Positions 24,739 to 32,004 of a DNA stretch of 64,000 nt are shown here, in pieces; position 1 is the first letter of the stretch, and each line of letters starts with the position of its first letter. The stretch lies in contig BFEA01000003.1 in NCBI GenBank assembly GCA_003427395.1, positions 4,714,266-4,778,265 on the forward strand, in the 5' to 3' direction. The stretch is from Chara braunii (lineage: Eukaryota > Plantae > Charophyceae). The notes beneath the pieces are model-generated. The model made no database searches and was not told where the DNA came from. It saw only the letters and a list, made by a program, of their open reading frames with translations. The position numbers were made by a program, and so were the translations under genes.

Positions 24739-27700
24739 ATGGGAGCACGGAACAATCTCCGAAAAAATCGAAGGGGACTCCGACCGCTGGGGTTGGGAGT
24801 TTGGAGGCATCGGGGCTTAAGCGGCAACGCATCCCGGTTTCAAGGGGTGCACCTTCCACGGGCACTCCGTCGACTCGTGTTCGGCTCTGGACCGGATAAG
24901 GCTGTGTTGATGACTGGCGGGCCTGCGGGTCAGGAACGTGTGCCTGGTCCACAGCACGGGAGATCTGCAGTGGAGGTTATGCCCGAACGCAAACCGTCTG
25001 GAGAACGTAAACCGTCTGGCGAACGTAAACCGTCTGGTGAAACGACTGCTGCGGGTCGGCGAGACGATGTCCCCGTGATTGACCACAAGGACAAGTTATG
25101 GATGCTGGACTGGGTGGGGGAGACCGGACAACCATCGAGTGGCCTTGTTCTATACGTGGTCATCAAAGAAAATATTGTGCCGGTTGGCGGCCTGGTGAGG
25201 TGGACTGGGCAAAATGTGTCGTTTGCAACTTTCGAGTTGACGATGGTCCTGAATGGAAGAGGGGAAAGAATACCAAACATTAAACACGTCGCTCTTCGAT
25301 GGGCCAAACACGCGGGGCTTGGAAAGTCGCTGGTTGATGTGTTCAACCCACCAGGGACATTGGAAGTGAAGTTGCCTAACCTCGTTGACGTCCTCGGGTT
25401 TTTCGACAGTAATGTGATCGCGGGCAGAGCGCCGGTTGTGCATCCAAAGGACCGCATATCAGAGCCTAAATGCGTGCTTTCGAAAACCGTGGAGACAGGG
25501 TCTTCGATCACGATCCGCGATACGCCGCCTGGTCCGAAAGCTGGGCAGATAGGAGAGAAGGGTCCGTGCCGCGGACTGGTCGTACCATCAGCCCCTATGA
25601 AGACCAGGCCAACGACGACCAAAACACCAGTTGCCTTGGGCAGTCGATCGCGCTATGATGTGGCCACCAAGGGACATCCCCCCTTGGTGGGCCAGCAGCG
25701 CTATGACTACGTAGAGGAAGTCCATGAGTATTTTGAAGATGAGGATGAATAGAACAGCAAGGAATATTCTGAACGAGCAAGAGGACAGGAACAGTATGCT
25801 GCGGGTGTCGGCGCCATGATGAAGACAGTGAGCACACTGTGAGCGCATCGGGTGGGGAGGTTGGTCTGGCAGGAGGATATGGGAGCAGCTACGAAGGATA
25901 TGAGGGGGATGTGCACGCGACAAAGGCTGTGGCTGGGCATACAGATGCTGCAGGGCTCTCTGAGCGAAAGAGGAAGCACAGGCGCGAGAGGAAAAGTCTT
26001 ATGGATAATAAACGGAGTAGGCAAGAAGCGGGTGAAAAAAAACGATTGAAAATAATGTCCGTGGATGAGGCGGTCCAGCGAACGCGGGAGACTGAGGCAG
26101 CCGCGAAGAAAAAGCAGCAGCCAAAAAAAAGAAAGGCAAAAGGTGGTGTTATGGAAAAGACTTCTGTTTTTCCAGCGGAACAACCACAATCGGATGAAGA
26201 GGCCCAAGGCAAGACAGTTACTAGGCCGCCAAGTTTGCGAAATGTGTCATCAGTGACTTCTTCTGGTGTTCTTAGCAAAGGTTTTTTCCTTGAGTTGGAC
26301 GAGCGTGGGAACCAATGTCCAGACATGGAATTCATTTCTGTCCAGTTCGACAGAATTATGAATATCCCCGATGGGGAATTCAGATACAATCAACGTTATC
26401 TTGTGCAGCAGACGGTTGACGATATTTATGACGCAATGATTGCATCGGGTGAGGCTGCTATGAGAGAGAAAATGACTGGAGTTGCCGGTGTGAATGTCTA
26501 TACGTTGTATGAGAAGCCTGTCCTTTTGTTGGTTGCCCTCCGTGATACATTGCATACTAACGCTTCAGGGAGGATTGTGAGAGCAAGGAGGGTATTGCCC
26601 TATGATTTCGATCTCGAATCTGTGAACAAGTACTACTACTACCCTCTCAGCGGTCAGCATAACGTGGCAGCGGCAAGAAGATTTTGTTGAACACCCTGAC
26701 ATCGCACAAGAGCTCCGATTGGATCGCTGGACTGCGAGGCCTGTTTATTATCCGGATAAGAGCATGGACAATTACGGCACGCTGAGCACTTTCCAGAACT
26801 CCAAGGACAAATGGAATACCCCACCGCACCAGAACGTGGTCGTCCAGAACATACGAAAGTTGTGGCACGAATCGAACTGTCCTGAAGCTAAAGGCGGCTC
26901 AGTAGCAGAAGTGAGAAATGCAGAGTATAGAAAGTTTGCAGGAGAGGCTCTTCGTTCGACCGGGATTCGTAATTTTATTGACATGTCCCTTACTACTCAG
27001 TAGAGCGGCCAGTGGTCTGACGCCCTTGGGCCCTACATGTTGTTGGCAAGGGCGACAGATGACGTTTTCGAAAAGGTGAAACAAGTGTACGCCGCTTGGG
27101 AAGCTGGACAATTGTCGGGGAGAGATGATGTGAAGCCTGCTACCAAACAAGGTGAATCAGGGAAGGCACCGAGGGCTGGACCCGGATTTGAGTTGAAAGG
27201 TGGAGTTAGGTATCCGGTTCACTGGGTTCAAGGTACCAAAGGACCTGGTTACCTCGTGGCTGTGCACGATCCGGATATCAGAGCGTGGAAGCCTTTTTCA
27301 GCGCTTGGGAGGCGTGAGCGGCTGCAACTATTGCGAGACATTCTCACAGGCAGTGTAATACCGACTCCTTAACAAAGTGGAGTTGCTCAACGTGCCGGAA
27401 AACATTCAACGGAAACATATGTGGAAATGGTGAAGAATGAAAGAGCAATGTTGAGGATGTTTCACTACTTCGTCTTCATTTCTAACCCTCACAGGAAGTC
27501 GTCAGAGTGGACGGAACCATTCTTCAACAACCTTTCCGATTTGTTTGATAAGTACTCTGATGAAGGATTGACGTCCGAGAGGTGGATCGACCAGCGTCGC
27601 CATTTCAAAGAGATGAGTTGGGTGCGAACGTTCCCGGCTACACTTGGAGGAGAGGAGGAAAAAGGAGAAGAGGGCTTCAAGAAAACAGCGTCACTTGCTG

Positions 27701-31202: not shown

Positions 31203-32004
31203 TGCATGACCCTTCGTTCCAGATTCCTTTAGCAACAAAATGTCTCACCGTAGAAGAAAAGGAGTATCTTGACATGATTACAGGCAGCAGCGAAGACAAT
31301 AAAGCATACAGCATTGTCGATTACAAGGGGAGCTAGAAGGTGGGAAAGGAAGACATCATGGTCGTCGTCGAGGATGGGAAATGGCTAAATGACGAAGTCG
31401 TCAATTTGTACCTGCTAGCCGTTTAGATCACCAATGATCACATCAAGGTTGATTCGGCATGTACAGAAGTGACAAGAGATAGGGTTCTTTTTGTGCACAT
31501 TTTCAGTTTTTTTTCTTCACTCGATTGTCAGGTCCTTCGAGGTTTGAAACCGCATATTCCGAAGGAATGAAATGGGTGAAGGACACAAATTTTTTTTATT
31601 ATAACTTAGTGATTATCCCTCTTCATTTTGAAAATCACTGGGCGTTAGCTTATGTCAGCATAGACGGTCCTAACTGTAAATTCCACCTCATAGACTCTCT
31701 CCCTCGTGCTGACTATGTTTCAGTCCTTGAACGTTTTGAAGATTTTTTCGAAGCGGAGTTTCATCGACACAATCTTCGCGAAAGATATTATGTGGACGGT
31801 CCTACATCCTCCTTTGATACATCAATGGATGGGATTCCTACTCAAGAGGATCTTTGTAGTTGTGGTATTTTTATGTTAGGTTTTGCATCTTTGCTTGCAA
31901 GAGGTCACTTCCCTCCATTTGTTTTCTCACAAGCCAACATTTCTGATATGAGGCTTAGAATAGCATTTGACATTTTGTCCATGGTTAGATACGAAAGTCA
32001 ATGA
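31203..32004 (+). pseudogene. Ulp1/SENP-like cysteine protease (peptidase C48), disrupted
   Basis: KWLNDEVVNLYL, IPLHFENHWAL, LIDSL, PTQEDLCSCGIFML (His-Asp-Gln-Cys set present). Two stops and a frameshift in the 5' part. TGCAG acceptor at 31202. Confidence 0.9.

Follow-up and report, generated by a model that had tools for sequence, protein, structure and literature searches.

We have analysed a 64,000-nucleotide stretch of the Chara braunii genome (assembly GCA_003427395.1, contig BFEA01000003.1, positions 4,714,266 to 4,778,265; hereafter the window), a repeat-rich eukaryotic stretch that contains a pseudogene of a large multicopy C. braunii gene (24693-32004; coordinates are those of the window, and features lie on its forward strand unless stated otherwise). 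The gene carries a predicted ParB/sulfiredoxin (Srx)-like domain, a predicted beta-class amino-methyltransferase (MTase) fold that has lost the canonical catalytic motif and, downstream, a Ulp1-type SUMO protease. Upstream of it lies the remnant of a second gene, here called gene U. These domain identities can be held with high confidence. Our best explanation, tentative at a probability of about 0.45, is that the locus preserves, in broken form, an accessory gene by which an undescribed multi-gene DNA mobile element would counteract silencing. An earlier note on this DNA, made from the sequence alone, had guessed the three-domain architecture; this was confirmed, with gene U as a second linked gene, and its interpretation is partly supported.

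A broken copy of a multicopy Chara gene

The earlier note had described abutting open reading frames (ORFs) from 24739 onwards. These ORFs are real, but they are pieces of a single reading frame that starts at the ATG at 24693, since in tblastn searches the Chara relatives align along one path from this ATG through all of them. The alignment to the relatives revealed one gene over 24693-32004, with six frameshifts (near 24882, 25818, 26681, 27960, 29072 and 29759) and seven in-frame stops (24720, 25750, 27001, 27370, 30439, 31334 and 31424). All six frameshifts and five of the stops fall in the main coding exon (24693-30577), which was delimited with the relatives and with a contig from run X1. 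This contig (6,793 bases, about 92% alike to the window copy) represents a related copy in which all six frameshift sites are filled by extra bases. Other indels are present too in the listed rows of the contig alignment, and the X1 copy is not necessarily intact.

We have sized the family with the 839-residue core of P0009, an unbroken relative that is 67-68% identical to the window copy. Searched against 1.84 billion representatives (50%), this core gave 183 matches at E<=1e-3, 148 of them at E<=1e-10, and 150 of the 183 were listed. Among the 20 matches looked up, 16 were from C. braunii and four were unnamed metagenome proteins; every named relative was a C. braunii hypothetical protein (up to 87% identical), and none was named from another sequenced eukaryote. 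A tree limited to proteins with at least 300 core residues placed 123 proteins in 13 clusters, with 64-84% identity within and 22-45% between them. Two of these clusters consist of metagenome proteins, and the metagenome members P0045, P0070 and P0085 stand in clusters of their own. P0045 encodes the whole core in a single uninterrupted ORF of 1419 amino acids, without Ulp1. The 17 contigs listed for 18 matches were all of different size, and most gene models carried large internal deletions. Together, clustering and dispersal are suggestive of an old, diversified repeat family.

The core had no match in Pfam, PHROGs or NCBIfam, and profile searches of PDB sequences returned nothing or low-complexity noise. 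Two metagenome scans and one viral contig scan yielded no relative locus. No description of the family was found in the published literature searched, which mostly lacks subscription papers. The family is apparently undescribed: its parts each have precedent, and their combination has none in the literature searched.

Transcript data came mostly from other copies. The raw oligo-dT reads that aligned to the locus numbered 17, 72 and 29, of which 0, 3 and 1 did so at >=99% identity, almost all originating from copies other than that of the window. The X1 depth was 44 over the core and 0-4 over the gene U region, with the contig starting 21 bases before the ATG. Such a pattern is easier to reconcile with a transcript from a single related copy than with genomic DNA.

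The predicted ParB-like and methyltransferase folds

We have built a structural model of the P0009 core from an 81-sequence alignment, with a mean predicted local distance difference test score (pLDDT) of 83.9 and a predicted template modelling score (pTM) of 0.59. An initial model based on 18 close sequences was too poor for use (pLDDT 36), although MTases already made up most of its non-significant Foldseek list. With the new model, Foldseek gave 42 PDB matches at E<=1e-3, all listed rows being permuted amino-MTases, led by M1.HpyAVI (E 7e-6), MboIIA, CcrM, BceJIV, RsrI and PvuII. A VIA-align comparison over 48,161 chains likewise placed permuted MTases at ranks 1-20 (Z 8.8-17.1), the best being CcrM (Z 17.1, root-mean-square deviation 3.4, 218 aligned residues, model residues 517-779); the rotifer N4CMT scored Z 15.1. 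These matches point to a beta-class amino-MTase fold at 27766-28667, a permuted Rossmann fold in which the catalytic strand precedes the part binding S-adenosylmethionine (SAM), in agreement with what had been read from the motif order of 27900-28630. In the ESM atlas, the nearest neighbours of this region were unnamed clusters (0.95), and N6_N4_Mtase (0.87) is taken as a lead only.

The catalytic motifs of this fold deviate from the canonical ones. The earlier note had read DPPY as DLCH and FxGxG as LGKDH, and both variants are present (VLDLCH at 27931-27948 and VFLGKDHA at 28509-28532), but the D of LGKDH is private to the window copy, its subfamily having FLGKGH and the family F/L-x-G-K/R-(A/G/P)-H-A. 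Motif IV in its [DNS]PP[YFW] form was found in 0 of 72 members, 70 of which keep D554 alone. The SAM loop reads F-x-G-x-G in 21 of 99 members, with uncertain register, and G-K/R/N-x-H/Q-A/S in 76; its second Gly is not conserved (A 36, G 24, P 23%). The acidic residue 762, which normally grips the SAM ribose, is kept in 99 of 102. Across subfamilies, D554 and E/D762 are each conserved at 97%, G741 at 91%, and Y713, E717, R718, H744 and W749 at 89-99%. By these counts, the canonical catalytic motif IV is lost family-wide, and the domain is probably a conserved non-canonical MTase fold and not a classical DNA amino-methylase. Of the earlier proposal of a catalytically dead fold, the loss of the motif stands, but a dead enzyme is not established, as SAM-pocket residues persist.

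The ParB/Srx-like domain was predicted at 26277-26812, with the motifs YNxR, GQH[N/T] and SxxxNx[K/R]. In VIA-align, the best match of this region was PadC (Z 7.3, root-mean-square deviation 3.0, 95 aligned residues), followed by KorB (7.2), SerK (6.6), pNOB8 ParB (6.0), SbnI (5.8), Srx (5.7 and 4.7) and Atu1540 (5.4). All eight listed rows starting in model residues 1-18 were thus ParB/Srx-superfamily proteins, to which we take SerK, SbnI and Atu1540 to belong. ParB rows were also obtained from the BFVD viral library (E 1e-3 to 4e-2). The region is accordingly described here as a predicted ParB/Srx-like core fold, with weaker scores than the MTase. The motif layout on which the domain had originally been proposed could be located throughout, with SGQHNVAA at 26649-26672, WTARPVY at 26728-26748 and STFQNSKD at 26785-26808.

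Within this domain, G126, Q127 and H128 are kept at 94-97%, N175 at 100% and K/R177 at 99%. ParB/Srx-superfamily proteins have a GxxR motif with a nucleotide-binding arginine. In the Chara family, the residue after GQH is N in 55 sequences, T in 31 and another residue in four, and never R (n=90), so that canonical CTP/ATP chemistry is doubtful. By language-model features, the ParB-like region was nearest to fungal DUF3723 clusters of the ESM atlas (0.95-0.96, 13 of 30 matches), and an hmmscan of 33 proteins gave no match to Pfam DUF3723 (PF12520) at E 10.

Three further conserved regions were recognised in the main exon. A small N-terminal domain (W-x-L-D-W-V, 25099-25480, end approximate) recurs in distant subfamilies and in the metagenome protein P0070. 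The middle region between the ParB-like and MTase folds (26813-27765), helical and with beta-hairpins, is confident in the predicted model. A second small domain (WGHxIxWHP..FQPA...W, 29396-29720, end approximate) is present in at least 30 relatives at <50% identity.

The core resembles several known systems. With the beta-class amino-MTases CcrM (6pbd), M.PvuII (1boo), M.RsrI, M.MboIIA, M1.HpyAVI, rotifer N4CMT (8s9n) and Marchantia DN4MT1 it has in common a permuted fold, predicted over about 220 residues (Z 13-17), as well as the Asp of motif IV and an acidic residue that follows the SAM-binding strand. Unlike these enzymes, it has no PPY (72 members), a mostly altered Gly loop and 5-10% identity, and unlike the eukaryotic beta-class enzymes, which include those for N4-methylcytosine (PMC8885841, 10.1101/2021.02.12.428880, PMC12344493), the Chara domain is embedded in a multicopy polyprotein and is not a single host gene. 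Likewise, the ParB-like domain shares its predicted fold (Z 4.7-7.3), a GxH-type loop and a downstream Asn with PadC (6ryk), KorB (8qa8), SerK and Srx, and differs from them in the GxxR arginine, replaced by Asn/Thr in 86 of 90 sequences. Activities of the ParB superfamily have been described (PMC10853773). The order ParB then MTase is that of phage ParB-MTase loci, but the Chara unit has about 300 extra residues between the two, is eukaryotic and comes with Ulp1.

A catalytically degenerate amino-MTase fold is also kept by the DIRS1 retrotransposons (PMC4738411). The DIRS1 domain is, however, group-2/PCIF1-derived and part of a retroelement polyprotein, whereas the Chara domain is beta-class, accompanied by ParB and Ulp1, with no linked reverse transcriptase (RT). 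The accessible text of that source reports inactive DIRS1 MTases, a ParB-helix-turn-helix domain fused to chlorophyte Dam, and phage ParB loci, and contains no family of the Chara type.

The Ulp1 protease, gene U and the flanks

The Ulp1 exon that had been noted downstream of the ORFs was recovered as Peptidase_C48 (31483-32001, E 9e-15), the sole Pfam domain of the locus. Its catalytic piece (31533-32004) matched SENP5 (E 1.4e-9) with the catalytic residues aligned, the triad and oxyanion Gln corresponding to His 31636, Asp 31693, Gln 31843 and Cys 31861. The Ulp1 active-site residues are thus intact in the window copy. A further N-terminal piece of Ulp1 lies upstream in a predicted exon with two stops (31203-31462; 91% match to P0002, 85% to P0032) and carries WLNDEVV at 31382. 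Before it, 30814-31095 is a possible coding exon (58% match to P0018 1045-1138). GT-AG intron signals flank the Ulp1 pieces.

The linkage between Ulp1 and the core also holds in other copies. Ulp1 follows the core in 10 of the 190 proteins analysed (nine by profile, P0032 by tblastn), and these fall in clusters 1, 2, 3 and 6, that is, in at least four subfamilies. In addition, the X1 contig spans 24672-31382 at a depth of 44 and joins core and Ulp1 in another copy.

The unit reaches upstream to 22568, well before the region covered by the earlier note. The broken 3' part of gene U (about 310 amino acids) occupies 22568-23316, as revealed by tblastn with P0181 1-320 (E 1.6e-36, 31-41% identity), and its 5' end is cut by a long terminal repeat (LTR) retrotransposon ending at 22567. 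Gene U had no Pfam, PHROG or NCBIfam match. The U domain occurs in 17 of the 190 proteins, and core matches were obtained for 11 of these; the nine U-plus-core proteins placed in the tree all belong to cluster 1, where gene U precedes the core and identity to the window's cluster is 27%. As U recurs beside the core across such divergence, the order U, core, Ulp1 is old, and the locus is an old multi-gene unit. A further branch of gene U (P0180, P0185, P0187-P0189) is separate from the core; here P0185 and P0188 have in common an additional unknown ORF downstream of U, and two copies of U occur in P0180. More than one arrangement of genes may begin with U.

Between U and the core, Tandem Repeats Finder (TRF) identified a 15-bp tandem array of about 38 copies (23884-24472) that is rich in GATC, TCGA and CG. 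It contains 88 TCGA and 54 GATC per kb, against 3.9 and 3.2 per kb in the rest of the window, and is also translated as part of P0014, P0016 and P0026, which are gene models from other copies. The array is a candidate cis site, which we treat as a lead only because any motif inside a repeat unit is enriched by construction.

Both flanks lie outside the unit. On the left, the junction at gene U is with the 3' LTR (20390-22567, a 97% repeat of 1-1925) of a large Ty3/gypsy element that was inserted into U. This element fills 1-22567, with LTRs 97% identical; its extra ORFs after the integrase (9285-11418) have gag-like and coiled-coil character, and many RNA reads that come from related copies map to its LTR. 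On the right, a Ty3/gypsy element on the reverse strand (32316-37553) abuts an A-tract after Ulp1 and is truncated at the integrase start, as judged by its ORFs and the junction translation; no LTR pair was seen in it, suggesting a deletion. Elsewhere, the window contains inverted repeats of about 160 bp (85%) at 40279-41180, themselves palindromic and resembling miniature inverted-repeat transposable elements, with similar palindromes at 41664-41772, 47681-47763 and 55620-55806. An intact-looking 525-amino acid F-box/leucine-rich repeat ORF with an acidic tail (43295-44872, reverse strand) is probably a host gene. A Harbinger-type DDE_Tnp_4 transposase fragment (62036-62854, reverse strand) lies 30 kb from the large gene.

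A candidate accessory gene of a mobile element

The dispersal of the family, its decay and the multi-gene unit make a mobile-element origin likely. Given this origin and the domain identities, we favour by a small margin over even odds a mechanism that combines a DNA reader with a deSUMOylase. In intact copies, the protein would enter the nucleus, where the ParB-like nucleotide-binding domain and a non-methylating MTase fold would hold it on DNA in the role of a reader or clamp; the GATC/TCGA-rich array of the element itself is a possible site for this. The DNA-held core would then bring in the Ulp1 protease, and SUMO would be removed from proteins that act at the element in silencing or repair. 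As an outcome, the element may be helped to escape silencing.

Several observations weigh against this explanation. Pfam searches of the 190 proteins found no tyrosine recombinase and no consistent mobilising enzyme, and no LTR, inverted repeat or target-site duplication was found around the unit in the window, both flanks being retrotransposon insertions. The earlier note, which had called the protein transposable element-borne, had identified no transposase or termini either; its proposal is backed indirectly, by dispersal, decay and the multi-gene unit, and not by a transposase or termini. The array was observed in the window's subfamily only. The ParB Z scores are below 8, rated middling by the tool, for a domain modelled as part of the core; the reading of F-x-G-x-G in 21 of 99 members means that cofactor binding may survive. 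Ulp1 is missing from 180 of the 190 proteins, though these are mostly fragmentary gene models. Run X1 is taken as RNA by guess only. Finally, a spliced core-to-Ulp1 transcript failed to appear: the predicted introns are retained in the X1 contigs, and none of 118 raw reads was listed with a splice joint, so that a single core-plus-Ulp1 protein is not demonstrated.

An unlikely alternative, though the best placed one, is that the unit is an ORF carried as cargo by a known DDE superfamily (Mutator, CACTA, hAT or Harbinger), with the transposase located outside the window on the far side of the LTR insertion. Mutator and Ginger1 elements are known to carry Ulp1 as an add-on (PMC2836005), and the Chara unit resembles these DNA transposons in its C-terminal Ulp1 with intact catalytic residues and in being a multicopy, decaying family. 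In the Mutator and Ginger1 elements of that source, however, Ulp1 stands beside a DDE transposase and the ParB-MTase core is no part of them, and the Chara unit has no consistent link of this kind. DDE-type matches were three unlike singletons: DUF659 in P0052, Mutator in the U-domain protein P0185 (below cut-off) and DDE_Tnp_4 (Harbinger) in the U-domain protein P0188. Three superfamilies, each in one of 190 proteins, are what nested insertions would give, and P0185 and P0188 are without the core. RT occurred in three of the 190 proteins. As candidates for the element's own enzyme, these DDE and RT pieces were rejected as unlike singletons.

Somewhat less probable still is that, within the same mobile unit, the MTase is an active non-canonical SAM-dependent writer that marks the element's own DNA (e.g., GATC/TCGA of the array) or RNA. 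This would suit the persistence of D554, G741, E/D762, Y713, E717, R718, H744 and W749 at 89-99%, the literal F-x-G-x-G of 21 of 99 members, the richness of the array in classical amino-MTase target words and the active beta-class MTases of bdelloids and Marchantia. It is opposed by the absence of [DNS]PP[YFW] from all 72 members, by the variable second Gly of the loop, and by the rotifer N4CMT, whose activity is abolished when SPPY is changed to APPA (PMC8885841).

We regard as improbable that the unit derives from a large DNA virus or Polinton-like element and became endogenised as a block. ParB-MTase neighbourhoods do occur in phages (PMC4738411), and BFVD matches included ParB proteins as well as Pandoravirus and Megaviridae MTases. 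These matches do not go beyond the fold level (7-14% identity), however; the 190 proteins include no capsid, no packaging ATPase and no polymerase B, the one viral contig scan gave no relative, and the Ulp1 pieces are flanked by GT-AG signals. A host gene family that has a chromatin role, has expanded and is decaying, with no mobility of its own, would fit the missing mobilising enzyme and the one related copy that appears expressed, but has equally poor odds given that broken copies are numerous and dispersed, with at least 11 Chara clusters represented, that a two-gene order is kept across 27% divergence, and that no relative looked up was named from another sequenced eukaryote.

For the accessory gene of a mobile element, a bolder and doubtful extension is that Chara harbours giant cargo elements of a separate, Starship-like class. 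Their mark would be a DUF3723/ParB-like protein to which a repurposed bacterial-type MTase fold and a SUMO protease have been fused; the array would be recognised in the manner of ParB-parS, and DUF3723 would be a ParB-type domain that fungal mobile elements have in common with those of the algal relatives of plants. DUF3723 is an auxiliary gene family of Starships, with a function stated to be unknown (10.1101/2021.12.13.472469, 10.1101/2025.02.28.640899, PMC11162782), and the resemblance of the Chara ParB-like region to it is one of language-model features. Unlike Starships, the Chara unit has no FRE, PLP or NLR gene found and no Pfam DUF3723 match; no tyrosine-recombinase captain or direct repeats were detected in the window or the 190 proteins, the 5' end of the unit lying outside the window. 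An MTase fold and Ulp1 are not described for Starships in the accessible text of these sources.

The Chara family would add a further eukaryotic beta-class amino-MTase fold to those of bdelloids and Marchantia, in this case one that seems to have been maintained for long as a non-canonical module. It also points towards a large mobile element of no established class close to where land plants arose, and it may guide work on the function of Starship DUF3723 proteins. More than 100 unannotated gene models of a model charophyte thereby gain a testable architecture.

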